Source: an uncultured virus (IMG/VR IMGVR_UViG_3300046030_000041) (lineage: Duplodnaviria > Heunggongvirae > Uroviricota > Caudoviricetes). From it: a stretch of 64,000 nt of DNA. Numbering within the stretch: position 1 is the first letter of the stretch; the number at the start of each line of letters is the position of its first letter. Under the pieces are notes generated by a model. That model worked only from the letters and a program-made list of their open reading frames with translations. It was not told where the DNA came from and ran no database searches. Where the stretch lies: IMG/VR virus record IMGVR_UViG_3300046030_000041; one strand, 5' to 3'. Below are positions 3,978-48,485 of the stretch, piece after piece. The translations under genes and the position numbers were made by a program.

Positions 3978-3988
3978 AAAACGATGTG

Positions 3989-9485: not shown

Positions 9486-9518
9486 GGTTGTTCAACTCCT
9501 TTCCCATGCGGTAAATCC

Positions 9519-9605
9519 CCCGTTTGAACTGCAATTTTTGTGCGTGTGACCCCAGCACCGGTCTAGCATTTGGGCGCGCCAGAGATTTGGACCGCCCCTC
9601 CTGGC
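9519..9605 (-). other. Putative cos/packaging site region
   Basis: Lies between HNH and terS. Shares the blocks GGGG, AAATCTC, CACGCAYAAAAA and TTCAAACGGGG with 55045-55135. Confidence 0.55.
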
Positions 9606-9614
9606 GAAGCGTAG

Positions 9615-9995: not shown

Positions 9996-10116
9996 AATGT
10001 TCATCTCCAGACATAGCAAAAGCCTTCAAAGGATCGCTCCCTCGAAGGCCTCTCTCACACTTTCATGCTATTAGTATGCCACGTCAAATGAATAAATGCG
10101 TCCGCGATTTTGGACA

Positions 10117-10575: not shown

Positions 10576-11927
10576 AGGCTGCCTCCTTGCAAGCTGGCCC
10601 GGACTGCATCAATCAGTGCAGCCTGGGTTTTGTTTTTTTCTTTCAATGATTTCATAATGGTTTCATCTATGGTTCCGGCAGTCAGAATGTGATGAATGAC
10701 GACCGTATCCGTTTGTCCTTGCCGCCAGAGTCTGGCATTCGTTTGTTGGTATAATTCCAAGCTCCAGGTTAGTCCAAACCAGACGAGAGTGGATCCGCCT
10801 TGTTGCAGGTTTAGACCATGTCCGGCAGAGGCGGGGTGGAGAATAGCAACAGGAATAACACCAGCGTTCCAATCTGTTATATCTTGTGAAGTCTTGATTT
10901 CTCGCACCGTAAACCGTTGCTGAATCCGTATCAGATCATGCTTGAACCAATACGCAATCAATACGGGTTTGCCATTGGCACCTTCAAGAATATCCTCCAG
11001 GGCATCGAGCTTTCGGTCATGAATGGGAATGATTCGCTTTTCCGCATCGTAGACGGCACCATTTGCCATCTGGCATAGCTTGTTTGATAAGGCAGCCGCG
11101 TTTACGGCATCAATTTCTTTCCCATCTAGTGAAAGCACAAGCTGGGAACACAAGGTATCATACATGTTTCGTTCCCGCTTCGAGAGTTGTACACTGATTT
11201 CATTTCGTACTACTGCTGGCATAGTCAGATACTCCTTGCTTTTCATGGAAATGGTGATGTCTGCGATACGCCGATAGATTTCTTCTTCCGCACCGGGTTT
11301 TGGCTTATAAGAAAAGATCATCTGTTGGTTCCGTTTATCCGGTTGGAAAAATTCACTCCGGTAATGGGTGATAAAACGACCAAGTCGCTGTCCCATATCC
11401 AACAGGCGAAACTCTGCCCATAGATCCATCAGGCCATTTGAAGAAGGCGTACCTGTCAGTCCTACGATGCGTTTTACCTTGGGACGAACTTTTAATAGAC
11501 TCCGAAACCGTTTTGCTTGATATGATTTAAAAGAGGAGAGTTCATCAATTACCAGCATGTCATAATGAAAGGGGATGCCGGAATCTTCTATCAACCAAGG
11601 CACATTCTCGCGATTGATAATGTGGATATTGACCTGCTGCAAGAGTGCGGCTTTTCGTTCCGTAGCCGTACCAATAGCAACGGCATACGTTAAGTTATGC
11701 AGATGGTCCCATTTCTGGATTTCTGCTGGCCATGTGTCCCGTGCTACCCGGAGAGGCGCGATGACCAGAACGCGGTGTGCCTTGAAGCTGTCAAACAGCA
11801 GATCGTTCATGGCCATCAGGGCAATGGATGTTTTGCCCAAGCCCATATCAAGCAGAACGGCGGATATCGGATGCGTTTCGATGTAGTCGATGGCATATCG
11901 CTGGTATTCATGAGGTTTGTATTTCAT
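10572..11927 (-). CDS. SNF2-family phage helicase
   Basis: LDMGLGKT, VIDELS, GLTGTP, SAGHGLNLQ, QTNARLWRQGQ. Confidence 0.93.
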   Translation of the reverse strand: MKYKPHEYQRYAIDYIETHPISAVLLDMGLGKTSIALMAMNDLLFDSFKAHRVLVIAPLRVARDTWPAEIQKWDHLHNLTYAVAIGTATERKAALLQQVNIHIINRENVPWLIEDSGIPFHYDMLVIDELSSFKSYQAKRFRSLLKVRPKVKRIVGLTGTPSSNGLMDLWAEFRLLDMGQRLGRFITHYRSEFFQPDKRNQQMIFSYKPKPGAEEEIYRRIADITISMKSKEYLTMPAVVRNEISVQLSKRERNMYDTLCSQLVLSLDGKEIDAVNAAALSNKLCQMANGAVYDAEKRIIPIHDRKLDALEDILEGANGKPVLIAYWFKHDLIRIQQRFTVREIKTSQDITDWNAGVIPVAILHPASAGHGLNLQQGGSTLVWFGLTWSLELYQQTNARLWRQGQTDTVVIHHILTAGTIDETIMKSLKEKNKTQAALIDAVRASLQGGSL

Positions 11928-14593: not shown

Positions 14594-14919
14594 CAGTCAT
14601 GCACCTCTTTCGAACCGTCCTCCAGAACCTTGGTGATGAATTTGAGCGCCGTGATGATCGTTTCAAGCTCACAGTCGCCGCCGAGGGTAACTTCGAAACC
14701 CTCGCTGCCAAACTTGTCCCGCGTCACATGGACATCCATCTCTGTGGAGGCCAGATCTTTGATGCGAAAATAGGTGCGGCTGCCGTGTCCACCGTCGCCA
14801 CCCTGATAACCATTTGTGCCCGCCTCTACTTCGAGAATATTGGCGCTCACGACCTCGCGCTTATAAGTAGGAATTTCAATGCCGCCTATGCGGCGCGTAC
14901 CTTCAGTGATTGCAAACAT
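14593..14919 (-). CDS. Conserved hypothetical phage protein
   Basis: EAGTNGYQGGDGGHG motif; coupled to its neighbours. Confidence 0.65.
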   Translation of the reverse strand: MFAITEGTRRIGGIEIPTYKREVVSANILEVEAGTNGYQGGDGGHGSRTYFRIKDLASTEMDVHVTRDKFGSEGFEVTLGGDCELETIITALKFITKVLEDGSKEVHD

Positions 14920-15340
14920 CTTGTACCTCCTCCAATTCTTCTGTGAAATAACGCAGGCGGTAGTCTTTCCACCTGGCTCGTTTGATCTCTGCCTGCATGC
15001 CAGCCGAGATATTGCTGCCGAACACCCAGACCTCTGAACATTTGCTCATGAGCGCATTTCCGAAGAACAGCCCAAGTTCACGTTCGTTCGGATCGGCGTC
15101 ATTCAGAAACTGCGGAAACAGCAGATGCGGCGCGATCGGGATGAAACCCTTGTCCACAGCAAACCGGCTGTAACCTCGCGCAGCCTTTACGTTCTTTTCG
15201 ATGACTCCCGCATAGGGAGAACAGATATATACGATTGGCCGGAAAGCGCGGAGCGCGTGTTTCTCTTTTTCAATCAGCGTAAGGGCTTCATAGGCAGTTG
15301 GGTCATGGTAGCCCTCAGCGTTACGTTTATCGATACTCAT
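14903..15340 (-). CDS. DUF4406-like (nucleoside deoxyribosyltransferase-like) protein
   Basis: VYICSPYAG, PIAPHLLFPQF, CSEVWVFG..SAGMQAEI. Confidence 0.75.
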   Translation of the reverse strand: MSIDKRNAEGYHDPTAYEALTLIEKEKHALRAFRPIVYICSPYAGVIEKNVKAARGYSRFAVDKGFIPIAPHLLFPQFLNDADPNERELGLFFGNALMSKCSEVWVFGSNISAGMQAEIKRARWKDYRLRYFTEELEEVQDVCNH

Positions 15341-15422: not shown

Positions 15423-17372
15423 TCAGTCTTTTTTATAAAAATCCGTTTCATAGCCATCCGCCCGTAGCAGAAGGCCCTTTGCCCACGGCGGCGTCCGACC
15501 CATCTGATCGCAGACCGCCTGCAGAGACATACGCGGATCAGCCTCAATGACCAGTTCATCGTGGATATGCATGACAATGGAGCAGTTCCGAAGCGTCTGC
15601 ATGGCATAGCACAGGATATCCCGGCTGGTCGCCTGCACGATATTTTCCACAAATTTTGGACCATAGGAATCGAGTCGTTCCCATTTCTTTGTGCCGCCGA
15701 CACCTTCGTAGGTGATGCAACTGCCGCCGAATTTGTTCTCGCCGATATGCGGTTTGACGTAGACGAGCTTTCGGCCGGAGGGCAGCGTGATAAAAAGCAT
15801 GCCGCTCTGGCAGGAGAAGATAATGCCGTGCGTTGTATTGGTATGTTTATTGCGAACAGCCTCCATTGCGGCACGGTCCACATCCCACCAGAGTTTTACG
15901 ATGTTTGGATTGGACTGCCGCCATGCGTCAACCAACGGAGGAAGTTCCTCCTCTGTGAGTCCCATTTCCAAAGCTCCCATCGCTTTGAGCGCCCCGACCG
16001 AGCCGCCGTAGCCGAGCGCCAATTCCGCGATTTTTCCTTTTTGCCGCAGGTGACCGTTGATGCCGTGCTTTTCGACAGGGATCTTGAACATCTGACTGGC
16101 GCTGGCGCAGTAGATGTCGCCGCCTTTCTTGAATACTTCGGTTCGCCAGTTTTCTCCGGCCAGCCACGCGATCACGCGGGCTTCGATGGCGCTAAAGTCC
16201 GATACAATGAACTTTGTACCGACTCTCGGCACAAAGGCTGTGCGGATGAGCTGCGAAAGCGTGTCCGGGATATCTTCATAGAGAAGTTCCAGCGCGTCAA
16301 AATCTCCGCAACGCACAAGGGCACGGGCCTGTTTCAGATCGGGAAGATGGTTCTGAGGCAGGTTTTGCATCTGAATCAGCCTGCCTGCCCAGCGGCCGGT
16401 CCGATTCGCGCCATAAAACTGGAACATCCCACGGGCGCGGCCATCGGCGCAAACAGCAGTCTCCATCGTCTGGTATTTTTTCACGGACGATTTGGCAAGC
16501 TGCTGCCGGAGGGAAAGCGCCTCGCCGAGCGGCTCCGGCGCGATCTTCAGAAGTTCGGCGACGGCTTTTTTGCCGAGCGTATCGGTTTCCAGCCCATTGT
16601 CGGAGAGCCATTGCTTCATCTGCTGCACTGAGTTCGGATTATCCAGCTTCGTCAGTTTTTTCATCGCGGCAGTGAGCTTTTCGCGGGACCGGCCGTCCAT
16701 GTCGATTGCCTGTCTGACCAGTGTCATATCCAAGGCAACGCCATGGTCATTGATTTCCTGATCCAGATGGTATTCATCCCACACGGATTCCGGCACCGGG
16801 AAGTTTGCGAGCTTGGCCTGAATCGCCATTTCCGTTTCGACATCCCGAACGTTGTATTTTTTGAACATGGACCATTTCTCCGGTGCATGGTACGGGTAGT
16901 TTCGGATACGCTGGCCGTTCACTTTTGTCGGTGCGCAGGGCCGACAGAAAAACTTGACGAGGTCTTTTCCTTCCGTCAGCTTCTGCTTTTCAAGACCGAG
17001 GACCGTGCCGACGCCTTCCAGCGAAAGCGGCAGGCCCATTGTGGCAGCCCATATCATGGAGCAGTGCCATTGGGCGGGCTCGAGATATTCGCCGGTCGGT
17101 AAGCCAAGATACCGGGATAGGCAGATCCGTTCAAAGCTGGCGTTGAAGGCCCACTTCGTTACGGATTCATCCGTGAGTGCGGCTCTGATTTCATCCGGCA
17201 GCTTTTCACCGCAGGCAAGGTCGATGGTTTGTACAGGGCCGTTGTCGGCGCTGTAGCCAAAGAGCAGAATCTCAAAGTCAGGAGCCTCCACATAGCGGTA
17301 AACGCCTGATTTTGAGAGGTTGATGCTACTGAAAGTCTCCAAGTCCACGGACAATGATGTTATGGTAGCCAT
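15423..17372 (-). CDS. Phage family A DNA polymerase
   Basis: DLET exonuclease motif, RTGRWAG, DFSAIEARV, RQKGKIAELALGYGG, HIHDE. Confidence 0.95.
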   Translation of the reverse strand: MATITSLSVDLETFSSINLSKSGVYRYVEAPDFEILLFGYSADNGPVQTIDLACGEKLPDEIRAALTDESVTKWAFNASFERICLSRYLGLPTGEYLEPAQWHCSMIWAATMGLPLSLEGVGTVLGLEKQKLTEGKDLVKFFCRPCAPTKVNGQRIRNYPYHAPEKWSMFKKYNVRDVETEMAIQAKLANFPVPESVWDEYHLDQEINDHGVALDMTLVRQAIDMDGRSREKLTAAMKKLTKLDNPNSVQQMKQWLSDNGLETDTLGKKAVAELLKIAPEPLGEALSLRQQLAKSSVKKYQTMETAVCADGRARGMFQFYGANRTGRWAGRLIQMQNLPQNHLPDLKQARALVRCGDFDALELLYEDIPDTLSQLIRTAFVPRVGTKFIVSDFSAIEARVIAWLAGENWRTEVFKKGGDIYCASASQMFKIPVEKHGINGHLRQKGKIAELALGYGGSVGALKAMGALEMGLTEEELPPLVDAWRQSNPNIVKLWWDVDRAAMEAVRNKHTNTTHGIIFSCQSGMLFITLPSGRKLVYVKPHIGENKFGGSCITYEGVGGTKKWERLDSYGPKFVENIVQATSRDILCYAMQTLRNCSIVMHIHDELVIEADPRMSLQAVCDQMGRTPPWAKGLLLRADGYETDFYKKD

Positions 17373-17887
17373 GAAAATATCCTCCCGTGTTTTATGGCGC
17401 TGATAATCGACTGTGACACACCATACATGGCAGCAAGGTCCGAGCCGCGTATGCCACACCAAATTCCAAATCGAATCGCTCCAACATCATCAACAGACAG
17501 CTTTCTCCATAGCTTCCCTTGTCTATAAACATCAAGGATGTTGTCGGTTCTGGTACCATAGCGAAGATTAGATAAACGATTATCAGTCGGTATACCATTT
17601 AAATGAAGAACCTCCATACGCTTTGGAGGCTCTCCAACAAAAGTTTTCATAACGAGCTGGTGTACAGGTTTACCATTGGTGCCTTTGCGAAGAATTACAG
17701 AAACATGACCACACTTACAATAGCGACCGGGTTTTAGAATTCGTTCTGGAATAGTACGGTAGAATGGCTTTCCTGTATACCAATTCTTGCTGACGGCCAT
17801 GCGCTTAAGGCTTTTAATGCGGCCCATAGTGCTTGCCTGATATTCACCCTCATAGCCGGGTATGTCTTTCCATATTTCGTTTTTCAT
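17360..17887 (-). CDS. NUMOD4-HNH homing endonuclease
   Basis: EIWKDIPGYEGEYQASTMGRIKS, VHQLVMKTFVG, HLNG..DNRLSNL. Confidence 0.9.
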   Translation of the reverse strand: MKNEIWKDIPGYEGEYQASTMGRIKSLKRMAVSKNWYTGKPFYRTIPERILKPGRYCKCGHVSVILRKGTNGKPVHQLVMKTFVGEPPKRMEVLHLNGIPTDNRLSNLRYGTRTDNILDVYRQGKLWRKLSVDDVGAIRFGIWCGIRGSDLAAMYGVSQSIISAIKHGRIFSWLP

Positions 17888-20515: not shown

Positions 20516-21034
20516 TTAGATGAAATCCTTCAGATAATCGGCAAGTGCGGCAAACAGCTTGTCCCTTTTATAGACGAAAGTATTCCGGGCCATCCCCATT
20601 TCCTTGCCGCAGTCGCGTTCGGAGCGGCCCTCCATCACAAGCTCACAGATTCGGCGACCTTCTGGATCAAGCTCGTCCAACTTATGAAGAAGTGTGTCCA
20701 GCAGTTCGCGGTCCTCCATCACGAATTGAGCGCTGGGCCTGTCATCCGGAAGATCTTCAAGCCAGCTTTTTTCGTTGCTATCCTCGTCGGTGACAGTGTA
20801 ATCAAGGGAAAGCTCATCGCCGCCCTTGTGAAAACGGCAGGTGCAGCAGTCCATATCGCAGAGATAGCGCTTGCTGGCCGGACAGACACAACGGCCGTGT
20901 TCCTGTTGCCTGCGGCGATAGGCATTGATATCGCGGTAGTAATTATCAAAATCTGTTTTGCTGACCGGCACCCACTGATGCAAGTCCTTGAGGTAGATTT
21001 TGCGTTCTGTAGATTCGTTGTCATTGATTTTCAT
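20516..21034 (-). CDS. Sigma-70 region 4-type activator/sigma-like factor
   Basis: C-terminal LDELDPEGRRICEL..GRSERDCGKEMGMARNT HTH; heads the early operon. Confidence 0.75.
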   Translation of the reverse strand: MKINDNESTERKIYLKDLHQWVPVSKTDFDNYYRDINAYRRRQQEHGRCVCPASKRYLCDMDCCTCRFHKGGDELSLDYTVTDEDSNEKSWLEDLPDDRPSAQFVMEDRELLDTLLHKLDELDPEGRRICELVMEGRSERDCGKEMGMARNTFVYKRDKLFAALADYLKDFI

Positions 21035-21303
21035 AGAGATTCCTCCGTTTGTCGTTTCTCGAAACGGAGGAATCTGCAGAGCTGACCTAAAAATGGCAAT
21101 AGTATGCCGTCCGCAGTCCTAACGGATTACTCCGTTTCGGATTGCAGCTTCCTGCTCAGTAGTCAGCTGTACGTTATTCTGTTGTCCACCTCATCGCACT
21201 GAACCATCCGTGATCGGCGGATGTACTTTGAGGCGACGACCACATCAATTTCGCAAAATATCGTGTGCTTTGAAGAAACTCCTTTCGCGTTCACAAAATA
21301 ATG

Positions 21304-21332
21304 TTGTTCTTTGCGAAATTTGGTGGTATAAT
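21304..21332 (+). promoter_or_regulatory. Putative sigma-A promoter of ABC-3C operon 1
   Basis: TTGTTC-17 bp-TATAAT with TGn extension. Confidence 0.55.
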
Positions 21333-21476
21333 GTATAAAAGCGGCTCGTAACAAGCACCTTGGTGGCTCTCTTACGGCTTCTTTTACACTTGTATTGTAC
21401 AAAAATAGAATGTCCACGAACTTGACGTCCGTGGACATGAATGTACAAGTGATGTACAAATAGAGGAGGCGCGGTA

Positions 21477-22481
21477 ATGACATTCAGTGAGTTTTTAAAG
21501 CTGATGCATTCATATATTGGATGCGGCGTTACTCAGCAAGACTATGTCTTGTATATCACCAACCTAATCATTCGGGAGCCATCAAGCGAATCTGAGGAGG
21601 CTGCAGACGAAGCCGATAATTATAATCCGATGTCAGGAAAATCGCCGAACCTGTTAAGCAAGATATACAACGGCGAGAGTAACAGAAAGATTGCAGTCAA
21701 CGATGCCCGTCGCCTGCTAAGTCTTTTTTCCAAAACAAAATTTGTAGATGAATTTATAAGCGTAGACATGGAAGCCAGGGAGAACCTGGTGGGGGCTCTA
21801 AAAAAACATGAAATTACATCAACGGCAGAAACTGTTGATGAGGTATGCGCCGAAATTTTCTACAGACTAATTGAAGCAATGGCCACCGGCAGAAATTATA
21901 TTTCTTCCAGCGACATTCCTCATGTTGATAGATATGGTCAGCGTCTGGCAGAGGCTCCTTTGACTTCTGTCTATGTCGAGGATGGAGTTATTCATATCGC
22001 GGACGAAAAAATAGAACTCCCGATCCAGCTCACGCCAGAAGAGGAGTTTGCACCATATGAGTTGCCATATATCAATGCTTTATGTGATGCTTACGCCGAT
22101 GCATTGTCAATGATAATTACGCCGGATGATATTGATAAATTGCCGAATCGCTACCATAAGGATTTTGTTTCACAACGTGAGGCATATTTTGCGGCTGAAA
22201 GTCTGCAGCGGTCTGTGCGCGAAGTATATTCAGATGGGGAAGATCAATTCAACAATTTAAAAAAAGAAGCATATGACGGCGTTGAAAACACATATCTTCA
22301 GGATTATGAGAACGGCTATAAACGCCTTCAAGCAGTAATTGATAAAATGCTGACCATGCCGCTTAGCGCGTCTACATTAGCACGCACTACAAATTTGATC
22401 AGGAATATGGTTAGAAAGGGCATTTGCCATGTTTTGGTGAATGATGGGCGCATCAAGTCCTGGGTAAATACCGATGAATGA
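21477..22481 (+). CDS. ABC three-component (Lamassu LmuA-like) protein: HTH-like N-terminus plus C-terminal domain
   Basis: C-terminus PYINAL..AY, QREAYFAAES, KGICHVLVNDGRIKSWV; N-terminal SPNLLSKIYNG; overlaps the middle component gene. Confidence 0.75.
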   Translation: MTFSEFLKLMHSYIGCGVTQQDYVLYITNLIIREPSSESEEAADEADNYNPMSGKSPNLLSKIYNGESNRKIAVNDARRLLSLFSKTKFVDEFISVDMEARENLVGALKKHEITSTAETVDEVCAEIFYRLIEAMATGRNYISSSDIPHVDRYGQRLAEAPLTSVYVEDGVIHIADEKIELPIQLTPEEEFAPYELPYINALCDAYADALSMIITPDDIDKLPNRYHKDFVSQREAYFAAESLQRSVREVYSDGEDQFNNLKKEAYDGVENTYLQDYENGYKRLQAVIDKMLTMPLSASTLARTTNLIRNMVRKGICHVLVNDGRIKSWVNTDE

Positions 22482-22917
22482 AGTCTTTAATACACCTTTT
22501 GAGATTTCGCTCAGGATGGTATTACTGCTTTCTGCGTGCGATAATGCCATAACGGCGGATCGCGCGGCGGCCTTGGATTTTATAACTGTATACAGCAGCG
22601 CATTCCATTTATCTCAACAGTCAATCAATGGCGAGAATGATTTCGGATTCAGCGAATTTGCTACACGCCGGGAACTCGTTAATAAAGCTCTAAAGAGCAT
22701 GGTTATTGACGGCTTGATGGCTGTTCGCAGAGACGAGTTGGGGTTTCAATATTCGCTCAGTCCATCTGGAAGAAAATTTTGCAGCAGCTTAAATAGCGAG
22801 TATGCAAAAGAATATAGTAAACTTGCGGCAATTACAGTGAGAAGCACAAAAACCAAAAGTGATGTAGATCTGTTGACTTTAATTACGCATGAGTCAACTC
22901 AATCGCTAAGGAGGTAG
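22474..22917 (+). CDS. ABC three-component middle component (LmuC-like)
   Basis: VFNTPFEISLR, LDFITVY, INGEN.F.FSEF..RR. Confidence 0.8.
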   Translation: MNEVFNTPFEISLRMVLLLSACDNAITADRAAALDFITVYSSAFHLSQQSINGENDFGFSEFATRRELVNKALKSMVIDGLMAVRRDELGFQYSLSPSGRKFCSSLNSEYAKEYSKLAAITVRSTKTKSDVDLLTLITHESTQSLRR

Positions 22918-22921
22918 CGCT

Positions 22922-24748
22922 ATGGCAAAAGGATTCTATATTAAACAAATCGTAGCAAAGAGCTCTACCAAAAGCGACTCTACAATCGAATTCTGCCCCA
23001 AGTTAAACATTATTGAGGGCCATTCCAATACGGGTAAGACCTGCGTTGCAAAGTGCATAGATTTTGCATTCGGCGGGTCAACGAAGAATCCATTTAAAGA
23101 ATCATCCGGGTTTAACCGGGTGTGCATGACTGTTTCAACTTACGATGGGAAAGAACTCGTTATAGATAGAACCGTTGGTAAAAATCAGGCCATGGTCACA
23201 AGTGAAATAGATGGCATCAGCAGCGATACATATGATCTTGAACCCAAGAAGAATCAGAAGCATCCTGTCTTGAACACCATTTGGCTGATGCTCATGGGCA
23301 TCAATTGCGATCCTGAGCCGCAGGTAGTTATTAATTCACGGTTTGAAAAGAAAAGGCTCACTTGGAAGAGTCTCCTCCGGCTCTTCTATTTGGACGAGGA
23401 CCGGGTCGGAGATTCAGAATCGATAATTGTGCCTCAACACAGATATTATGAGAATACATATTTTTTATCTGCTCTGCTTTATCTGTTGACCGGGCGCGAC
23501 TTTTCTGAAACAGATGCAAAAGCAAAAAAGGAAATACGTCAAGCACGAAAAAAGGCAATCACGGAGTATGCAAACGGCAAGATACAAGAAGCGACAAAAC
23601 GTCGTGAGCTGCTTAGCAAACAATTGGAACTGTTTGATGGAATTGACGTTGAGCAAAAGATCGCCGAGTTGGTGCAATCTTTGGAAACTGCCGAGGAAGG
23701 TATTTCCTCCGCTCTAAATGAGAGTAAAACATTATTAAGTACAATCATGGAGACAGAAGAACGCGAAGCTGAATGTGATATTTTGCTTTCAAGGTTTAAA
23801 CAACTTAAGGGGCAGTATTCGGCAGATATCAAGCGGCTTTCATTTATCGCAGATGGGGAAAACGAGCTTAGCAACGTACCCAAGCCTGCCAATTGTCCTT
23901 TCTGCGATGGTAAGATTGCACCTCGCGGAAGAAAATCATATATAGATGCTTCTAAAGCAGAACTAAAGAGAATTGCGGCACAACTGGAAGGACTTATTAG
24001 TTCTGAGCAGGATGTTCTGGCTGAAAAGTCGGAAATTGAAGAGAAACTAAAGGAGCTTCGGCAGAAACGCGATAATATTGAAGCATTAATAAAAGAGGAA
24101 TTGCAACCCAAGGCGAGCCAGTTGAGCGAATCTATTGCATCTTATAAGGCTTATATACAAATTTCTAACGAAATAAAATTGGTGTCGTCTTTTGCACAGG
24201 ATTTCGCTGTTGATATCAACACCTACTCTACTGATGAAGATGAAAATGAGATTGAATATCACCCCAGGGAGTATTTTGACGATGACTTTCAAAGCGTGAT
24301 GACTGAGTACGCCATGCAAATCCTCCGTGAATGCAATTACGAAAATCTTACGAGCGCTCGTTTCGATATGAGTATTTTTGATATTGAAGTCAATGGCGAA
24401 AGCAAGGAAAATAGTAATGGAAAAGGCTATAGAGCATATTTGAACTCAGTCGTAATCTTAATGTTCAGAAAGTATCTTTATAAATACGCGAAGTTCGACC
24501 CAAGAATGTTTATTATTGATACCCCGCTACATGGCTTCGACGAGGGCATCGATGAAACAGCACCAGAAAGTATGCGAACAGCTCTTTTCCAGTACTTTAT
24601 TAATCATCAGGATGAGGGACAATTGATAGTGATTGAAAACTTGGATCACATTCCCCATTTGCCGTATGAAAAATCCGGCGCGACAGTAACAAAATTTGTA
24701 AAAGGACGCGAACCAGGTAGGTATGGTTTTTTAAATGATGTTAAATGA
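22922..24748 (+). CDS. SMC/Rad50-like ABC ATPase (LmuB-like)
   Basis: Walker A GHSNTGKT, coiled coil with CPFC Zn-hook, signature-like NGKGY, Walker B FIIDTP. Confidence 0.88.
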   Translation: MAKGFYIKQIVAKSSTKSDSTIEFCPKLNIIEGHSNTGKTCVAKCIDFAFGGSTKNPFKESSGFNRVCMTVSTYDGKELVIDRTVGKNQAMVTSEIDGISSDTYDLEPKKNQKHPVLNTIWLMLMGINCDPEPQVVINSRFEKKRLTWKSLLRLFYLDEDRVGDSESIIVPQHRYYENTYFLSALLYLLTGRDFSETDAKAKKEIRQARKKAITEYANGKIQEATKRRELLSKQLELFDGIDVEQKIAELVQSLETAEEGISSALNESKTLLSTIMETEEREAECDILLSRFKQLKGQYSADIKRLSFIADGENELSNVPKPANCPFCDGKIAPRGRKSYIDASKAELKRIAAQLEGLISSEQDVLAEKSEIEEKLKELRQKRDNIEALIKEELQPKASQLSESIASYKAYIQISNEIKLVSSFAQDFAVDINTYSTDEDENEIEYHPREYFDDDFQSVMTEYAMQILRECNYENLTSARFDMSIFDIEVNGESKENSNGKGYRAYLNSVVILMFRKYLYKYAKFDPRMFIIDTPLHGFDEGIDETAPESMRTALFQYFINHQDEGQLIVIENLDHIPHLPYEKSGATVTKFVKGREPGRYGFLNDVK

Positions 24749-24782
24749 ATTTGTGAGCAACAGCAAAGCAGGAGGCGAACCC

Positions 24783-24992
24783 ATGAAATTTAGTTATAAC
24801 AAGCTTTGGAAACTTATGATTGATAAAGGTATCAACAAAAAAAGCCTGCGTGAAATGAGTGGCATTAGCGCAACGTCTGTTGCAAAGCTTGGAAACGGTG
24901 GAAATGTAAACACCGAAATTCTACTCAAGATTTGCGCAGCATTGAATTGTGATGTTGGAGATATTATGGAAATCGTCCCAGACGACAAGTAA
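24783..24992 (+). CDS. Small XRE/Cro HTH regulator
   Basis: SYNKLWKLMID..ISATSVAKLG..ICAALNCDVGDIME. Confidence 0.88.
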   Translation: MKFSYNKLWKLMIDKGINKKSLREMSGISATSVAKLGNGGNVNTEILLKICAALNCDVGDIMEIVPDDK

Positions 24993-25042: not shown

Positions 25043-25465
25043 ATGGGAGTAATTATTCGGGCACGTGATTATCTGCCTGAAAAGCAGGCGGGAATGTTGA
25101 AACCGATCATATTCTGCGTGTCCAGCAATGAGATGGTAGAAAAATCTGTTTCCATAAACAAGATGCTTGCTGAAGAATTGATAAAGGTGCGGAAAAACCG
25201 CCGGACGGTGCAGATGGAACGCTGCTTTAACCAAGTGATTTTAGGGTTGCCTGATGGGGCTGTCATAAAAGACTTTGATGTTCTGTTCAATCCTGATTAT
25301 CAGGTGGACGTCTTGAAGATATTTGTCACTGCATGCAAGCAAAAAACGTTCAGTGTCCTTTGGCCCGGTAGGCTGGAAGATGGAAAACTGTTTTATGCAG
25401 AAGAGGGCTTTCCAGATTATAAGGTGTACAACATAGGCGATTACGATATTACTTGCATCGTATAG
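25043..25465 (+). CDS. brxF: BREX type 3 BrxF-like protein
   Basis: VLFNP...WPG....LFYAEEG.PDY; first gene of the cluster. Confidence 0.75.
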   Translation: MGVIIRARDYLPEKQAGMLKPIIFCVSSNEMVEKSVSINKMLAEELIKVRKNRRTVQMERCFNQVILGLPDGAVIKDFDVLFNPDYQVDVLKIFVTACKQKTFSVLWPGRLEDGKLFYAEEGFPDYKVYNIGDYDITCIV

Positions 25466-25482
25466 CCGAGAGGAGAAAAAGC

Positions 25483-28400
25483 ATGAAATATTCTAAACTA
25501 ATTAGTTTTAATCCGATTGAAGATGTCATTCAGCTCACGACCGCCAGTGATGAAAATAAGGCCCGCGAATATGTAAAGACCTATGTTATGTCCGATGCTA
25601 TGGCCGATAGCTTGAAAGCCACGGTTATCGATCAGCTGCGAATGGACGAGGTCATTGACAATAAGGGCGTTCTCGTCGTTGGTAACTACGGAACCGGTAA
25701 ATCTCACTTAATGTCTGTGATTTCAGCGGTTGCCAATAACGCTGATAACCTTCAGTACTTGCAGAACAAGAAGTTTGCAAAGAGCATGGAACCGATTGCC
25801 GGCAAATTTGAGGTGCTCCGTATTGAAATCGGTGGGGTTACCATGTCACTGCGTGAAATCCTGTTCGGCTTTATTCAGGACGATTTTGATAGCCGTGGCA
25901 TTGACTTTGAGGTCCCGGATTTTTCGACTGTCCGCGATAATAAGAAGCTGATCAAGGACATGATGATGGCTTTTTCCGCAAAGTATCCGGATAAGGGCTA
26001 TCTCATTGTCGTAGATGAGTTTTTGTCATACTTGACGTCCCGTAACGAGCGGGATATCGTACTTGATCTGGAATTCTTCCGCGCCTTGGGGGAAATGTGC
26101 TCAAAGTCAAATCTGCGTGTGATATTCGGTGTGCAGGAGAAGGTATTTGATAACCCGCGTTTCAGCTTCGTATCAGACACGCTGATGCACGTCAAGGATC
26201 GTTTTACGCAAATCATCATCAGCAAAGAGGCCACATCCTATGTTGTCTCGGAACGAATTCTGAAAAAGACGCCAGAGCAAAAGGCCCTCATTCGTGCGCA
26301 TCTGGAGAAATTCAGTAACCTTTATGCCGGAATGTCCTCCAGAATGGATGAATTTGTGGACCTGTTCCCGATCCATCCGTCCTACATCGACGTTTTCAAT
26401 CGCATATATCTGATTGAGAACCGCCATATTCTTAAGAACATTTCCTTGACAATCAAAGATATTTCTAATACCAATGTGCCGGAAGACGCACCCGGCGTCA
26501 TCTCTTTTGATGATTATTGGCCTGCAATCAAGTCGAATGGACTTCTGCGCAGCGATGTAACAATCAGCCGTGTAGTAACGGCGAGCCAGCAGCTGGAAGA
26601 CATCATCAATCGGTCCTTCCAGAAGCCTGCGTATAAGCCAATGGCAATTCAGATCATCTATGCTCTGAGCGTTCACCGCCTTACTACGAATGGCCTTGAC
26701 GTACAGTTCGGCCTTACTGCGGAAAACCTGAAGGATGACCTGTGCCTGTACCTTACCATGCCGGAACAGGACGCCGATTTCCTGCTCGGAGCAGTCAAGG
26801 CTACTCTGCGTGAAATCATGAAGACGGTTTCCGGGCAGTTTATTATCTTCAACGAAGGAAACGGTCAGTACTATATTGATGTAGACAAGATCGTCGATTA
26901 CGACGAAAAGATAAAGCAGAAGGCATCTTTGCTGGCCGAAGGAGAACTGAATCGCTTTTTCTATCAGGTCGTTTACAGTTGCCTTGAATGGGAACAAAAG
27001 CAATATGTTCCCGGCTTTGAAATCTATGAGCATGACCTGAATTGGGACAGCCACAACATTTTCCGCGAAGGCTATCTCTTTATGGGCCTGCCCGGCGAGC
27101 GCAGCACGGCTCAGCCGGAGCGCGACTTCTATATTCACATTATGCCGCCCTATGGCAACGCAGGCGCAGCCAGAAATGACAAGGAAGATGAGGTCTACTT
27201 CTACTTCAAGTCCAATGATGAGTTCTATGAAATGCTGTCGCTTTATGCCGCAGCAAATAGTCTGGCAGGCATCAGTGAGGGCAAGGATAAGGAATCTTAT
27301 CTGACGAAGGCAGGCACACTGCGCAAGGGCCTTGTGAAGTTCCTTAGTGAAAATAAGAATACCTGCTTTGATGTTGTTTATGACAAAGAGCGGCATCAGC
27401 TGATTGAAATCCTGAAAGGCCGCTACAACCGGGATTACACATTCAACGATACGATGGACCTTGCGGCGTCGCTCTGCCTTGACGGCTATTTTGACCGCAT
27501 CTATCCGGAATTCCCGGTTATGAAGACAAAAATTACGCACAAAAATATGGCTGACAACGCACGTGTCGCTTTCGACCATTTTGCGGGCAGAAAGACCCAG
27601 CAGTCTGCGCTTATGCTGCAGAGCTTCGGCGTGCTGGACGGCGAGAAAATACGCCCGGAAGGTTCCAAATATGCCGCTTACTATATTGATTTGATAAAGG
27701 CACTTCCGCAGCAAGGCGTTCTCAACTTCTCTGATCTGTTCGAGCCGCAGGGACTTTATTGGCAAATCGATAAGAAGTTCCGTATCTGGCACATTTTTAC
27801 GCCGGTCATTTTCCTTTCGATGGTATATGCAGGCTACGCCGTAATCACGCTGAAGAACGGCGAAACCATTACTGCATCTACTCTGGACAAGGTGCCGAAG
27901 ATCTCCGCGACTGACTTGTATGAATTCAAATATCTCTCGAAGCCTGCGCAGATTTCCATGGCTGAATTGAAAAAGCTCTTTGACATCATTCAGCTGAACC
28001 CGGCGCTGCTGGATAACCCAAATGACCGTGAAAAAGGAGTTACTGATCTTTGCAAGAGAGCGCAGGAGCTTTGCAATAATGCGGTTCGGCTTGAGCGGAA
28101 GCTCACCGAAGGTTTTGACCTGTGGGGCGAGCCGCTTGCCAATCAGCAGCAGATTCAGCTCATGCGATCTGCTTGCACGGCGGTGAAGGATGAATTCAGC
28201 AATTACGGCGCTCGTTTCAATACACCGGCCAAGCTGAACAACTTCAGCCTCACTTCCGATCAGGTTGAAGAACTGGGCAAGAAGATCGCCCTCCTGCAGA
28301 TCGTTCCGGAGTATATGGCCTTCAAGCGCGACTGTGGAGATGTCGTAAAGTACATTGCGGACATTGAGTTCATTGACCTTGGTGCTTCTCTGAAATCCGA

Positions 28401-29175
28401 GATCGAAAATGCAAAAGCGTCGTTCCGCGAAACACGCGACAGCATCATGAATGGAACCACCGGCGAGGCCGCAGCGCAAAAGGTCTGTGCCGAACTGGAA
28501 AAGATCAAAGAAAAATACATCACCATTTACTTTGACGAGCACAAAAAGAAGCGCCTTGGCATCGAGGATGCAAAGCGTCGCGGCAAGATTCAGGAGAGTA
28601 TCGCTCTGTCAAACTTGCGGAAGCTGCGTACCATCGAAATTCTATCCTCTGCAAAGTTGGCGGAGATCGAGCAGGATTTGGCATCGCTCAAGGTCTGCTA
28701 TGATCTGACGCCGACTGAACTGAAGAGCAGCTCGATTTGCCCGCATTGCAGATTCAGTCTGGAAGACAAGGCAAAGAACACCTACGGACAGCTCGATAAC
28801 ATTGAAAACCGTATTGATGCTCTGGTGGCAGAATGGACGAAAGTGCTGCTGGATACCATCTCTGACCCATTGGTATTAAATCAGAAGGAGTATCTCTCCG
28901 ATGCGCAGGCCAAGGTTATTGACGACTTCATTTCGAGCAAATCGTTGCCGAAGCGTGTGGATGACTTCTTTGTCAAGAGCATTATGGCTCTCCTGAAGAA
29001 CTACGAGCCGGTTGTCATCATCGTGGAAGACCTTGTACAGAAGCTGGACGAGCTGCCGCCGCTGGATGAAGCCACGTTCAAGGCAAAGCTGAACGGGATC
29101 GTTTCAACTTATACTGCGGGTAAAGACGCAGCGACGCTCCGAATTGTTGTCAAGAGAAGAGAAAGCGAGGAATAA
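25483..29175 (+). CDS. brxC: BREX type 3 ATPase BrxC/PglY (DUF6079-like)
   Basis: VGNYGTGKSHLM, VVDEFLSYL, FPIHP, C-terminal CPHC; about 1230 aa. Confidence 0.85.
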   Translation: MKYSKLISFNPIEDVIQLTTASDENKAREYVKTYVMSDAMADSLKATVIDQLRMDEVIDNKGVLVVGNYGTGKSHLMSVISAVANNADNLQYLQNKKFAKSMEPIAGKFEVLRIEIGGVTMSLREILFGFIQDDFDSRGIDFEVPDFSTVRDNKKLIKDMMMAFSAKYPDKGYLIVVDEFLSYLTSRNERDIVLDLEFFRALGEMCSKSNLRVIFGVQEKVFDNPRFSFVSDTLMHVKDRFTQIIISKEATSYVVSERILKKTPEQKALIRAHLEKFSNLYAGMSSRMDEFVDLFPIHPSYIDVFNRIYLIENRHILKNISLTIKDISNTNVPEDAPGVISFDDYWPAIKSNGLLRSDVTISRVVTASQQLEDIINRSFQKPAYKPMAIQIIYALSVHRLTTNGLDVQFGLTAENLKDDLCLYLTMPEQDADFLLGAVKATLREIMKTVSGQFIIFNEGNGQYYIDVDKIVDYDEKIKQKASLLAEGELNRFFYQVVYSCLEWEQKQYVPGFEIYEHDLNWDSHNIFREGYLFMGLPGERSTAQPERDFYIHIMPPYGNAGAARNDKEDEVYFYFKSNDEFYEMLSLYAAANSLAGISEGKDKESYLTKAGTLRKGLVKFLSENKNTCFDVVYDKERHQLIEILKGRYNRDYTFNDTMDLAASLCLDGYFDRIYPEFPVMKTKITHKNMADNARVAFDHFAGRKTQQSALMLQSFGVLDGEKIRPEGSKYAAYYIDLIKALPQQGVLNFSDLFEPQGLYWQIDKKFRIWHIFTPVIFLSMVYAGYAVITLKNGETITASTLDKVPKISATDLYEFKYLSKPAQISMAELKKLFDIIQLNPALLDNPNDREKGVTDLCKRAQELCNNAVRLERKLTEGFDLWGEPLANQQQIQLMRSACTAVKDEFSNYGARFNTPAKLNNFSLTSDQVEELGKKIALLQIVPEYMAFKRDCGDVVKYIADIEFIDLGASLKSEIENAKASFRETRDSIMNGTTGEAAAQKVCAELEKIKEKYITIYFDEHKKKRLGIEDAKRRGKIQESIALSNLRKLRTIEILSSAKLAEIEQDLASLKVCYDLTPTELKSSSICPHCRFSLEDKAKNTYGQLDNIENRIDALVAEWTKVLLDTISDPLVLNQKEYLSDAQAKVIDDFISSKSLPKRVDDFFVKSIMALLKNYEPVVIIVEDLVQKLDELPPLDEATFKAKLNGIVSTYTAGKDAATLRIVVKRRESEE

Positions 29176-29178
29176 GAG

Positions 29179-31665
29179 ATGGAACGCAGAAAACTTACAA
29201 AAGCGGATATCGATAAGGTCCGCAATATCGAAGGCTTTCCCATTGGCAGCGATGAGGATATTATTGCGCTTTCCGATGCGCCTTTCTATACAGCATGCCC
29301 CAATTCCTTCATTGAGGAGTTTATCAAGGAGAATGGAACCCCATATGATGAGGCAACGGATGATTACCATCGTGAGCCATACACAGACGATGTGGCCGAA
29401 GATAAGCATGACTTGATTTACAATATCCATAGTTATCATACAAAGGTTCCGCCAAAAGCTATAATGACCTATCTTGAACATTACACGAATCCGGGCGATA
29501 CGGTCATCGATACTTTTTGTGGCTCCGGAATGACTGGTGTGGCTGCGCAATTGTGCAATAGCGGAGCCCGAAATGCAATTTTGGTTGACTTGTCTCCTTA
29601 CGCAACTTTTTTGGCATCAAACTATAATAATTCAAACAATTCGCATGTGATATCTGAATTACAAGGAATCATTGAAGAACTATCTAACAAATACGGTTAT
29701 CTATACAGAACGAATCATGTTGTAAACGGGAAAACACAGATTGGATTTAGTGGGAAACCGATTGAAGGAACTATAAATTATACAATCTGGTCAGATGTCT
29801 TTTTCTGTCCTCACTGTGGTCAGGAAATGGTGTACTACAATGCGGCCCTCGATCCTAAGACAAAAAAAGCCTTAAAGAAATTCAAGTGTCCAAAGTGCAA
29901 TTTTGAAATAAGCAAACTTAATATGATTCTCAAGAAAGAGACTGATATGACAGATTCTGGTGAATATGCCGAACACGCTGTAAAGGTGCCTGTTTTGATT
30001 AACTACAGCATTGATAAAAAGCGGTTTGTAAAAACGCCAGATGCAGATGATATTGCTAAGATTGAGACCTCAAGAATCGTAGAATGGCTACCGAAGGATG
30101 AGCTGCCCACAGGATATAATACTGAACAGCCTAAGCGGTCGCATGGAATGTGTTGGGTTAACTCGTTCTATACGAAAAGAACTCAATTCATGCTCAGCGA
30201 GACATATGCAAGAGTTAAGACAGATCAAAAAAAGATGTTTCTGTTTACCAGTATCTTGCCTAAACTCACGCTGCTAAATCGATATATGCCTGAACACGGG
30301 AGCAGAGCATTAGTAGGTCCTATGGTTGGCACATACTACGTTCCCTCGTTGAGCGTAGAAAATAATGTTATCCATCAATTGTTGTTCCAATTGCAAAAGC
30401 TGGGGCATCTTTCCTACCAGCAAGGGAAAGTGCTCGTTAGCACGCAATCGGCGACCGATTTGAGCAATATTCCAACAGATAGCATTGACTATGTGTTTGT
30501 AGATCCTCCTTTTGGCGCAAATATTATGTACTCTGAATTGAACTTCATGCCAGAAAGTTGGTTAAAAGTAAAAACAAACAACGCGGAAGAAGCTATCATT
30601 AACAACATCCAGAACAAAGCACTTCCTGAATATACAGGATTAATGAGCCAGAGTTTTCGTGAACTGTTCCGCGTCTTAAAGCCTAATCATTGGATAACGA
30701 TAGAATTTCACAATTCAAAGAATGCAGTTTGGAATGCAATACAACAAAGTATCCAGACCGCAGGCTTTATTATTGCAGATGTTCGCACTCTCAGCAAAGA
30801 AAAGAAAACGGTTATGCAATACAAGTCTGACAATACCGTTGATCAAGACTTAGTTATTTCAGCATATAAGCCAAAGGATAGTTTTACGCGAGAATTTAGA
30901 CTGAAAATTGGTAGTGTCGATACAGCATGGGATTTTGTCAGGGAACATCTTTCAAACCTACGAGTCGTTGTGAACAATGATGGAATTATCGAGGTTGTAT
31001 CCGAGCGTCAGGCGTTTTTGCTTTGGGATAGGATGGTAGCTTATCATATTATGCAAGGAATCGCTGTTCCTCTTGATGCAACAGATTTCTATAAAGGTCT
31101 CGACGAGCGATTCTTGAAGCGCGACAATATGTATTTCCTGCCAAATCAAGTTAATGAATATGATTTAGTACGCTCAACTTGCGAAGTTGAAAGCCTTCAG
31201 TTTTCGCTGTTTGTCTCTGATGAAAAATCTGCCATAGGCTGGCTATATCAGCAGTTGAGTCCTGAAGGACATGGCCCGCAAACTTATGCGGAATTGATGC
31301 CAAAATTCATGCAAGAATGCCAGGCGCTGGACAAGCGTGAGAAAATGCCGGAGCTCTCCGTCATCCTCGAAGAAAACTTCCTCAAGGACGATGATGGCCG
31401 CTGGTATATTCCTGACCTGACCAAGAGCGGTGATATTGCGAAACTGCGTGAAAAGAACCTGCTCAAAGAATTCCAGGAGTATTTGTCCACCAAAGGTAAG
31501 CTCAAAGTATTCCGCTCTGAGGCCATCCGTGCTGGGTTTGCAAAGCTGTGGAAGGACAAGGACTATGCGACCATCGTTGCAGTGGCCGAACGTCTGCCGG
31601 AGGAAACCATTCAAGAGGACCAGAATCTGCTGATGTACTACGATATCAGCTTGGGTCGTGTGTAA
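29179..31665 (+). CDS. pglXI: BREX type 3 DNA methyltransferase PglXI
   Basis: HSYHTKVP, DTFCGSGMTG, DPPFGANIMYSELN. Confidence 0.85.
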   Translation: MERRKLTKADIDKVRNIEGFPIGSDEDIIALSDAPFYTACPNSFIEEFIKENGTPYDEATDDYHREPYTDDVAEDKHDLIYNIHSYHTKVPPKAIMTYLEHYTNPGDTVIDTFCGSGMTGVAAQLCNSGARNAILVDLSPYATFLASNYNNSNNSHVISELQGIIEELSNKYGYLYRTNHVVNGKTQIGFSGKPIEGTINYTIWSDVFFCPHCGQEMVYYNAALDPKTKKALKKFKCPKCNFEISKLNMILKKETDMTDSGEYAEHAVKVPVLINYSIDKKRFVKTPDADDIAKIETSRIVEWLPKDELPTGYNTEQPKRSHGMCWVNSFYTKRTQFMLSETYARVKTDQKKMFLFTSILPKLTLLNRYMPEHGSRALVGPMVGTYYVPSLSVENNVIHQLLFQLQKLGHLSYQQGKVLVSTQSATDLSNIPTDSIDYVFVDPPFGANIMYSELNFMPESWLKVKTNNAEEAIINNIQNKALPEYTGLMSQSFRELFRVLKPNHWITIEFHNSKNAVWNAIQQSIQTAGFIIADVRTLSKEKKTVMQYKSDNTVDQDLVISAYKPKDSFTREFRLKIGSVDTAWDFVREHLSNLRVVVNNDGIIEVVSERQAFLLWDRMVAYHIMQGIAVPLDATDFYKGLDERFLKRDNMYFLPNQVNEYDLVRSTCEVESLQFSLFVSDEKSAIGWLYQQLSPEGHGPQTYAELMPKFMQECQALDKREKMPELSVILEENFLKDDDGRWYIPDLTKSGDIAKLREKNLLKEFQEYLSTKGKLKVFRSEAIRAGFAKLWKDKDYATIVAVAERLPEETIQEDQNLLMYYDISLGRV

Positions 31666-31686
31666 TTCATCACTGGAGGAATTGTA

Positions 31687-34359: not shown

Positions 34360-34361
34360 CA

Positions 34362-36522: not shown

Positions 36523-36539
36523 AACGAGGAGGATTTCAT

Positions 36540-36782: not shown

Positions 36783-36786
36783 GCAG

Positions 36787-39134: not shown

Positions 39135-39136
39135 GG

Positions 39137-48478: not shown

Positions 48479-48485
48479 GTGCTTT

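Follow-up and report, generated by a model that had tools for sequence, protein, structure and literature searches.

Lamassu systems are among the commonest families of bacterial defence. To our knowledge, every member that has been studied mechanistically uses an enzyme as its weapon, and members devoid of an enzyme are known only as an unexplained clade. The system considered here is a Lamassu operon in a 64-kb stretch of DNA (64,000 nucleotides (nt), hereafter the window) from an uncultured virus of the class Caudoviricetes (IMG/VR record IMGVR_UViG_3300046030_000041), where it is followed by a small regulator-type gene and diverges from the sigma-like gene that heads a phage early operon. 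In a recent preprint (bioRxiv 10.1101/2025.04.02.646746), short Lamassu systems are described as having an LmuB of ~600 amino acids (aa) with a CxxC hook and a Walker B motif ending in D-[Q/S/T/E], while a Lamassu 'clade O' is described as having lost its effector. The window operon has the same order, LmuA-LmuC-LmuB, as short (type II) systems such as DdmABC/Lamassu Vc-Cap4 of Vibrio cholerae, and its LmuB has, besides Walker A, a CxxC in the middle of the protein and a Walker B motif that ends in D-T, in keeping with that part of the description. It differs from the short Lamassu effectors in the N-terminal domain of LmuA (the head), which is not a Cap4, Mrr, Sir2, protease, lipase or HNH domain or any other Pfam family, and from the V. 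cholerae system in its conserved fourth gene, HTH_26, its leader repeats and its prophage slot. With a probability of roughly 65 %, the locus is a phage-borne Lamassu that would follow its solved relatives until LmuA has been released and has oligomerised, would then act through a non-enzymatic head, and would belong to a stacked defence operon controlling itself via the leader repeats. This short Lamassu is probably accessory defence cargo of a defective Heliusvirales-like prophage, rather than a lysis-lysogeny switch.

A short Lamassu system with a conserved fourth gene

The cassette and the genes following it are:

21477 to 22481, plus strand: LmuA, 334 aa, with an all-helical head (~residues 1 to 150), a beta-hairpin linker and a CTD6 domain (Pfam, PADLOC, AlphaFold2 models)
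22474 to 22917, plus strand: LmuC, 147 aa, ABC-3C middle component MC2 (Pfam MC2, 3.1e-43; PADLOC LmuC, 6.4e-50)
22922 to 24748, plus strand: LmuB, 608 aa, a short ABC ATPase resembling structural maintenance of chromosomes (SMC) proteins, with a CxxC zinc hook (PADLOC PDLC03867, 4.2e-228 over residues 3 to 607; Pfam AAA_23)
24783 to 24992, plus strand: 69-aa XRE-family helix-turn-helix (HTH) protein HTH_26, the conserved fourth gene (Pfam HTH_26, 1.1e-20)
25043 to 36522, plus strand: complete type 3 bacteriophage exclusion (BREX) system comprising BrxF, BrxC (DUF6079), PglXI, BrxH helicase, PglZ and BrxA (PADLOC, Pfam)

The first three genes constitute a short (type II) Lamassu/ABC-3C system. 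A preliminary description of this DNA, made from the sequence alone, had recognised three plus-strand genes of these sizes as Lamassu-like, with a zinc-hook ABC ATPase as the third product and an ABC-3C-type C-terminus on the first. All of this is confirmed by the PADLOC matches for LmuA, LmuC and LmuB, the hook and Walker motifs of LmuB, and the CTD6 domain at residues 195 to 329 of LmuA (Pfam, 1.4e-35). The PADLOC model PDLC03857 covers LmuA at full length (1.9e-91, positions 1 to 327 of 327), and the subtype is therefore already present in a defence database. In an AlphaFold2 model of the whole LmuA (29-row alignment; mean predicted local distance difference test (pLDDT) score 85), residues 183 to 334 could be superposed on the solved LmuA chains 9nxx_A (Z 11.7, root-mean-square deviation 3.0, 127 aligned residues) and 9hqx_A (Z 11.1). 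The C-terminal domain is of the Lamassu type and, by analogy with these structures, would dock on LmuB and LmuC.

Relatives of LmuA were sought in one genome per species, which yielded 117 confirmed relatives, the best 80 of which were retained (loci L001 to L080). The system decays in some hosts, with LmuA broken by in-frame stops or fragmented in L052 (~10001 to 10972), L063 (926 to 1822) and L074 (~9507 to 10086). A homologue of HTH_26 directly follows LmuB in 46/61 loci with a complete LmuB and at least 400 nt of downstream sequence. In the window its open reading frame (ORF) extends from 24735 to 24992, with the conserved start at 24783 located behind an AGGAGG site, 34 nt after LmuB. Across the family the protein comprises 67 to 99 aa, with 48 to 85 % identity and a nearly invariant recognition helix.

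The BREX genes which follow in the window are matched by PADLOC with E values of 1.5e-18 (BrxF), 0 (BrxC), 0 (PglXI), 1.5e-293 (BrxH), 2.5e-71 (PglZ) and 2.5e-54 (BrxA). In 13/23 loci examined, the cassette is directly followed, on the same strand, by clear restriction-modification (RM) or BREX genes, which include type I, BREX 1, LlaJI-type and Eco29kI systems. The remaining ten loci have a methyltransferase fragment or DUF1156 (two), a helicase, ATPase or PAPS-reductase (three) or host genes (five) at this position. The pairing of the cassette with a system based on DNA modification suggests a stacked Lamassu plus restriction island. It is plausible that restriction or BREX action on incoming DNA could produce the DNA ends which Lamassu reportedly senses.

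Variable cargo beside a phage early operon

The window contains two related mobile elements, arranged head to head. The Lamassu operon diverges from the early operon of element 1, which begins with the following gene:

20516 to 21034, minus strand: sigma-like first gene of the early/replication operon (PHROG 13787, 2.2e-34; sigma-factor PHROG 351, 5e-7)

The sigma-like protein is rich in cysteine, with several conserved Cys and His residues in a zinc-ribbon-like N-terminal half (alignment) and a C-terminus resembling sigma-70 region 4. Its relatives match Pfam Sigma70_r4, while the window protein itself has no Pfam match. The divergent arrangement which had been described for the window, where the sigma-like gene precedes DUF2800, DUF2815, PolA and primase genes, recurs widely. 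A sigma-like gene, as found with an iterative profile built from the two window proteins, lies divergently upstream within 3.5 kb in 44/61 loci with at least 2.5 kb of upstream sequence. A replication-module gene with at least 30 % identity to those of the window (tblastn) lies divergently upstream in 27/54 loci with at least 5 kb of upstream sequence, which is an undercount because early modules of other phage types, or the sigma-like gene by itself, are present in other loci. The loci without the DUF2800 module mostly have SNF2 plus DUF7307, Gp157 plus AAA_24 or PriCT_2 genes, or only a sigma-like gene adjacent to host genes.

From this arrangement the preliminary description had inferred that Lamassu replaces a CI-type repressor. 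LmuB and LmuC would sense DNA ends and free an HTH-type LmuA, which would flip the sigma-gene promoter without RecA and so decide induction or mobilisation. The recurrent position beside the sigma-like early gene and the cluster of repeats in the shared control region are in favour of such a switch, as is the fact that no S24 peptidase is found among the 62 window ORFs scanned. That part of the earlier claim stands. The wider statement that the slot is without a repressor-type gene fails, since the XRE-type HTH_26 gene lies directly behind LmuB, and the presence of this gene also argues against LmuA as the repressor. A CI-type repressor would be expected to be a divergent gene sharing the early control region, as LmuA is in the window and the 44 loci, and to be retained at the slot by related phages, which LmuA is not. 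LmuA was detected in 3/50,697 phage records, and in only 1/12 of the records whose DUF2800 protein is 60 to 80 % identical to that of the window. The slot is occupied by other cassettes in PV036457 (HTH_26 plus a CTD11/MC7/DUF2326 ABC-3C system), PV036420 (two small genes, an AAA_13 ATPase and HTH_26), PV036449 (an AAA_13 set with HTH_17), PV036431 (HTH_17 plus a LlaJI-type RM system) and PV036426 (AAA+/subtilase genes, with HTH_26 before a UvrD-nuclease gene). In NatCom_9291 the Lamassu genes run in the same direction as the early operon and are without HTH_26. Conversely, an intact Lamassu persists where the phage does not. At the Bifidobacterium loci L053 and L054, which are flanked by host genes, the sigma-like gene has suffered a frameshift or truncation, yet LmuA, LmuC, LmuB and the HTH gene are all intact; small islands of a similar kind are found at L021, L075 and L076. 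Within the 64 kb the repeat cluster is unique, and the head of LmuA, which Pfam, hhalign and fold search do not identify as an HTH, also tops STAND NTPases and a TIR protein (see below). On this evidence the proposed induction switch is very improbable, and plain defence cargo at a hotspot, which had been offered as a caveat, is the better-supported reading.

The N-terminal head of LmuA

The head (residues 1 to 152), when modelled alone from 28 rows, folds with confidence into eight helices (pLDDT 91.9, predicted template modelling score 0.86). Comparison with solved folds gave a best Foldseek E value of 0.9 against the PDB and a best Z of 4.8 in an all-against-representatives search, an absence of matches which is not equivalent to a new fold. 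Among regulators, the comparison retrieved only 4jl3 (Foldseek E 0.9) and 3op9 (Z 2.4), both at noise level. A profile search of PDB sequences with the head returned just LsoA (E 0.11) and S17 (E 0.92), likewise noise, and the best score in the ESM Atlas (0.83) was below the level of a lead. Outside CTD6, no Pfam family, and no HTH family, matched LmuA at E<=0.01, and alignment of the head with the HTH_26 alignment of the same locus gave a probability of 0.3 % (hhalign). The fold searches revealed neither a transmembrane segment nor a known toxin fold.

The head is acidic (median net charge of -7 and isoelectric point of 4.9 among 28 sequences). Only three to four positions are conserved in the homologue alignment, with G66 invariant and P51 and A77 nearly so. 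As only G66 is invariant, the conservation is not that of an enzyme. No catalytic motif was found, which agrees with the earlier observation that the N-terminus is without a nuclease, protease or NADase motif. The most conserved stretch (~residues 50 to 92) forms a basic patch in the otherwise acidic domain. It contains the letters which had been read as an XRE-like helix. While these letters are present and located in the most conserved part of the head, they are not XRE by Pfam, hhalign or fold search. The 'XRE-like helix' thus marks the functional centre of the domain and cannot be called an HTH. The fold check that had been proposed for the N-terminus gave no support for an HTH, nor any match to an enzyme or pore-former. 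On the basis of the model, the head is predicted to be a new, acidic, non-enzymatic module of eight helices.

This module is widespread. A profile search of 1.84 billion representatives gave matches in 858 cluster representatives at E<=0.001 and 450 at E<=1e-10, with the head always N-terminal and a total protein length of 111 to 1508 aa among the 150 matches listed. Fifty head proteins with lengths other than ~330 aa were chosen for domain scanning. These comprise proteins with CTD11 (16) or CTD6 (3), STAND NTPases (7), one protein with TPR only, one TIR plus VWA protein, and 22 with nothing further. The seven STAND NTPases combine the head with NB-ARC, nSTAND or NACHT and with TPR or WD40 (together with the TIR-VWA protein: P0099, P0164, P0183, P0224, P0218, P0207, P0198 and P0161). 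These fusion proteins derive from different, context-free records. Since the head is shared by CTD11 ABC-3C proteins, STAND NTPases and a TIR-VWA protein, it can be considered a conflict-system module, and its distribution among the matched sequences appears to be that of an output or adaptor module of such systems.

The head could thus be a toxic effector, or a death-domain-like adaptor recruiting a host or phage protein in the manner of the N-terminal modules of STAND/Avs proteins, with the leader repeats belonging to another regulator, such as LmuC or a host factor. The fusions to seven STAND NTPases and one TIR-VWA protein among the 50 scanned would fit this explanation, as would the acidic, helical character of the head, the lack of catalytic residues and the small number of conserved positions. 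It is at odds with the negative fold searches for transmembrane segments and toxins, and with the gene content of the loci. No second head-bearing protein was found in the same locus among 54 sources with a match, where four double matches are fragments of broken genes, so that the loci show no pairing of adaptors. The explanation is regarded as unlikely, at about one chance in four.

In some loci (L037, L006) the head is encoded as a separate gene just before a 232-aa LmuA, and the N-terminus of this short LmuA is disordered. Six further loci (L007, L009, L010, L011, L014 and L017) have an extra first gene of 338 to 516 aa, belonging to no known family, ~1 kb before the short LmuA. The last ~20 residues of its product repeat the peptide with which the short LmuA begins, as would be expected had one fused gene been divided into two. 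The extra gene has its own repeated unit in the upstream region.

Promoters, structured RNA and leader repeats

The control region between the sigma-like gene and LmuA incorporates four features:

21075 to 21236, minus strand: DUF2800 RNA motif (Rfam RF02960) in the sigma-like gene's leader (score 118 bits, gathering threshold 60.2; model positions 1 to 158 of 158)
21304 to 21332, plus strand: promoter-like element P1, TTGTTC, 17 nt, TGnTATAAT, facing Lamassu (read from sequence)
21383 to 21411, plus strand: promoter-like element P2, TTTACA, 17 nt, TAGAAT (10/12 matches)
21395 to 21460, no strand assigned: five repeat units with the consensus TG[T/G]ACA[A/T] and a 9-bp inverted pair among them; putative operator or leader element (pattern scan)

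P1 fails the rule of the promoter scan, which requires 4/6 matches in the first hexamer, while the -10 box of P2 corresponds to a box conserved ~70 to 80 nt before LmuA in other loci. The DUF2800 RNA motif lies between the sigma-like gene and Lamassu and occupies the same place in L005 (9583 to 9742) and L030 (9595 to 9753), two of the seven additional loci examined for it. Upstream of the second sigma gene of the window, no match was obtained at E<=1. This orphan RNA is a cis-regulatory candidate that had been left out of the earlier model, and the state of the early operon probably involves it. A 106-aa ORF overlapping the RNA (21163 to 21483, minus strand) was considered spurious, with no Pfam, PHROG or PADLOC match and no tblastn match in the 80 loci.

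Wastewater metatranscriptomes (X15, X16 and X18, of which two runs belong to the same study and one to a second) yielded contigs that match LmuA, LmuB, the HTH gene and BREX with 0 to 5 mismatches. One starts at 21357, just after P1, another spans LmuB to HTH_26 and another HTH_26 to BrxF. Such contigs give no proof of strand, level or a single transcript, and these libraries may contain DNA. X15 and X16 are without cover at 12 to 14.6 kb and 15.3 to 17.3 kb, and X17 has little on Lamassu; missing cover does not equate to silence.

The repeat cluster overlaps P2, falls within the stretch proposed earlier for an electrophoretic mobility shift assay (21380 to 21465) and is the sole cluster with more than three matches in the 64 kb. 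It accounts for eight matches to the pattern, palindromic units being counted once per strand, while over the whole window the 35 matches are in line with the shuffle expectation of 33. A similar array is common to the family: the ~60 nt leading up to the ribosome-binding site of LmuA hold about three copies of a 7- to 9-nt unit, often with one more inverted. In 27/34 distinct loci, three or more direct 7-mers (with a tolerance of one mismatch) fall within the 72 nt that precede this site; the observed mean is 2.85 copies versus 1.93 in dinucleotide shuffles. The gaps are 10 nt in 33/63 and 12 nt in 12/63 cases, and the offsets are nearly fixed at about -50, -40 and -28 from the LmuA start codon. 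The unit itself varies by lineage: it is of the GGACA/GTACA type in the window, and GCCTAC, GCATACA, CGGACT, TGACC, GGGGTAA or GCGAAC elsewhere. The repeats also precede the head-encoding gene where the head is a separate first gene (L037, L006), and are present before the operon in more distant CTD6 systems with other heads. The fold of the leader RNA is not distinctive (z -1.8, with 10/200 shuffles as good).

The identity of the repeats is not tracked by HTH_26, as the window and L030 proteins are 82 % identical and have the same recognition helix while their repeats differ. L048 and L053 likewise have different repeats, although their HTH proteins are 85 %, LmuB 78 %, LmuC 55 % and heads 71 % identical. 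In this pair the LmuA segment equivalent to window residues ~50 to 75 falls to 6 to 9 identities out of 20, whereas L048 and L030, with the same repeats, keep 13 to 17/20. No such local drop was observed in LmuC in the L048/L053 contrast. The covariation of head and repeats comes from this one clean contrast. L016 and L018 run opposite, with differing helices and similar TGAC-type repeats. Comparison of whole-leader 6-mer sharing with protein identity was uninformative, with five components correlating alike (Spearman 0.29 to 0.33). Recognition of the repeats by the head, as suggested by this sequence comparison, is a lead rather than a result, and a tentative one.

As the repeats track the most conserved head segment in one close contrast, a nucleic-acid-binding output stays in consideration. 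The freed LmuA oligomer would then bind its own three to five leader repeats, as a DNA operator or as 5' untranslated RNA in a sequence-specific manner, and set the level of the Lamassu-HTH-RM/BREX operon. Several observations would fit this explanation: repeats that differ between lineages and between the two copies in the window, their constant position before the head-encoding gene, a recognition helix of HTH_26 that is nearly invariant across repeat classes, and a drop in identity that coincides with the basic patch. In addition, an oligomer would be well served by three or four sites at intervals of a helical turn. However, the acidic head has no fold or profile link to any DNA-binding family, the L016/L018 pair contradicts the single clean contrast, the components are all of common ancestry and were not separated by the crude 6-mer comparison, and the TIR-VWA fusion fits an effector or adaptor better. 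This output is possible, at somewhat under one chance in three, and the same modest odds apply to its corollary that an SMC-type sensor acts on gene expression, be it to the benefit of the phage or not.

The second Lamassu copy and the two mobile elements

Element 2 had been described as having the same layout as element 1, and this is indeed the case, with a second Lamassu diverging from a gene for a sigma region 4 protein:

37335 to 40523, minus strand: second Lamassu, comprising LmuB2, LmuC2 and the C-terminal 317 codons of LmuA2 (Pfam, PADLOC)
40638 to 42955, plus strand: IS21 (istA, istB) inside LmuA2 (Pfam rve/Mu-transposase C, IstB)
43122 to 43238, minus strand: N-terminal 38 codons of LmuA2, severed by IS21 (read from sequence)
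43260 to 43313, minus strand: copy 2 leader repeats, two direct 10-nt units plus one inverted, then a palindrome (read from sequence)
43521 to 44156, plus strand: sigma region 4 gene heading the element 2 early operon (Pfam Sigma70_r4_2, 5.5e-14)

The disruption of copy 2 by an insertion sequence (IS), as noted previously, can be stated more sharply: IS21 splits LmuA2 after codon 38 rather than merely flanking it. The copy 2 leader repeats differ in sequence from those of copy 1, and no HTH_26 gene follows this copy. The cargo arms of the two elements meet in a 0.8-kb region (36522 to 37335), with just two ORFs of 80 and 90 aa, neither with a family match.

Element 1 extends leftward from 21034 and encodes, in order, the sigma-like protein, a 116-aa ORF, a DUF2800 exonuclease, a DUF2815/Gp2.5-like single-stranded DNA-binding protein, HNH, family-A DNA polymerase, DUF7768, a D5-type primase-helicase, an SNF2 helicase, a RinA-like activator, HNH, TerS, a ParB-methyltransferase, an amidase, TerL, a second amidase, SHOCT and a serine recombinase. 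Element 2 extends rightward from 43521 with a matching gene order. The window DUF2800 protein shares 60 to 75 % identity with its counterparts in IMG/VR and 'NatCom' phages that are classified as Ca. Heliusvirales. Although element 1 has both TerS and TerL, no portal, capsid or tail genes occur between TerL and the recombinase, and IS elements are located at 1 to 840, 40638 to 42955 and 59904 to 61199. Given these IS elements and the missing capsid and tail genes, both elements look defective. The region from 915 to 5786 (minus strand) looks like a deletion- or IS-scarred prophage. Its 764-aa 'recombinase' ORF also bears IS3-type HTH domains, and an IS3 transposase core is located at 1 to 840.

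Both elements encode proteins of the type involved in phage DNA hypermodification (6067 to 6825, 14903 to 15340, 48450 to 48881, 53357 to 54439 and 57014 to 58902), including amidoligase-like, DUF7768 (nucleoside 2-deoxyribosyltransferase-like), glutamine amidotransferase/peptidase C26 and radical-SAM-like proteins. An HNH/NUMOD4 homing-endonuclease-type gene (17360 to 17887, minus strand) lies between the single-stranded DNA-binding protein and DNA polymerase genes of element 1, with no listed counterpart at that position in element 2. No tRNA genes were found in the window.

Proposed function and its weighing

By extension from the solved Lamassu systems, an LmuB dimer and LmuC would hold LmuA by its C-terminal domain until DNA ends free it, upon which LmuA would oligomerise through this same domain. 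Oligomerisation would gather the non-enzymatic heads, which may act by binding nucleic acid or protein instead of cutting. Lamassu, HTH_26 and BREX would be expressed rightward as a stacked defence operon. The comparison of loci suggests that the lineage-specific repeats before the LmuA ribosome-binding site serve as an operator or leader element for self-regulation of the cassette, and that HTH_26 may be a cassette-linked regulator between Lamassu and the variable RM/BREX module.

Several points weigh against this reading. The defence activity of this LmuA subtype is putative, and the reading offers no account of how a head that is devoid of catalytic residues would kill or block. The position is steadier than would be expected of random cargo, with the sigma-like gene divergent in 44/61 loci and at least three phage replication modules involved. 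Furthermore, the leader repeats overlap P2 and lie in a control region shared with the sigma-like gene, as the operators of a switch would, while their change along with the head segment between L048 and L053, where HTH_26 is 85 % identical, fits an LmuA that reads nucleic acid. The survey was seeded from LmuA relatives and the phage collection is small for this lineage; as a result of this seeding, the share of such phages carrying the system cannot be derived.

A bolder version of the nucleic-acid-binding output holds that the head is a new nucleic-acid-reading domain, by which an LmuA oligomer, freed when LmuB/LmuC sense DNA ends, would clamp three to five lineage-specific repeats, set a helical turn apart in the control region that the Lamassu-HTH-BREX operon shares with the sigma-like early gene. 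This version is distinctly doubtful, at little more than one chance in five. If true, it would represent an SMC-family immune sensor with a transcriptional or translational output in place of a toxic enzyme, and the same head would be reused as an output by STAND NTPases.

Under the preferred reading of defence cargo, the locus makes the puzzle of the effector-less Lamassu systems concrete, with a well-folded and widespread head, a four-gene cassette and a directly testable repeat array. It further demonstrates that a temperate phage lineage prevalent in gut and wastewater (Heliusvirales-like) carries stacked Lamassu and RM/BREX systems in a single slot beside an early promoter, and that the region controlling this promoter also holds an orphan structured RNA, the DUF2800 motif.

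Comparison with known systems

The Lamassu family, its habit of travelling as prophage cargo and the existence of effector-less members are already known. New are the conserved four-gene cassette and its constant location next to a sigma-like early gene in several types of phage, as well as the array of lineage-specific repeats and a head, widespread and uncharacterised, that also occurs on STAND NTPases. No paper among those listed by literature searches links Lamassu to Heliusvirales or to a prophage switch, while the supplements of the bioRxiv Lamassu preprints may list the subtype; PMC11283538 makes no mention of lamassu, repressor, lysogeny or sigma.

As regards clade O, the 232-aa LmuA relatives with a disordered N-terminus fit its published description and are candidate members. 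The window LmuA is similarly without a recognisable effector and stands beside full-length LmuC and LmuB. Unlike the effector-lost proteins as described there, it has a folded head of 150 residues (pLDDT 92). In view of this folded head, the 'lost' effector may be a failure of annotation.

STAND NTPases of the Avs type carry effector-associated or death-like adaptor domains and N-terminal effectors, as shown in the work of the Aravind group. The head resembles the effector-associated domain (EAD) modules of STAND proteins in its occurrence on ABC-3C effectors, on a TIR-VWA protein, and at the N-termini of NB-ARC, nSTAND and NACHT proteins that also bear TPR or WD40. It differs from them in having no Pfam EAD match and no second copy in the locus.

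Controller (C) proteins regulate restriction-modification systems. Like these, HTH_26 is a small XRE-type HTH protein whose gene immediately precedes RM or BREX genes of the same orientation. Unlike C proteins, it retains 48 to 85 % identity while the downstream type varies (type I, BREX 1 and 3, LlaJI, Eco29kI), and stays with Lamassu where no RM system follows (L021, L053, L054).

Defence genes are found in prophage control regions and hotspots, as in lambda cI-rexAB and the P2/P4 hotspots. The window conforms to these cases in having defence genes on the lysogeny-side arm beside a divergent early promoter, with contents that vary between related phages. It departs from lambda cI-rexAB in that the first gene is a defence gene and not a repressor, and from the lambda and P2/P4 cases alike in that this Lamassu subtype recurs at the slot across several types of phage replication module.

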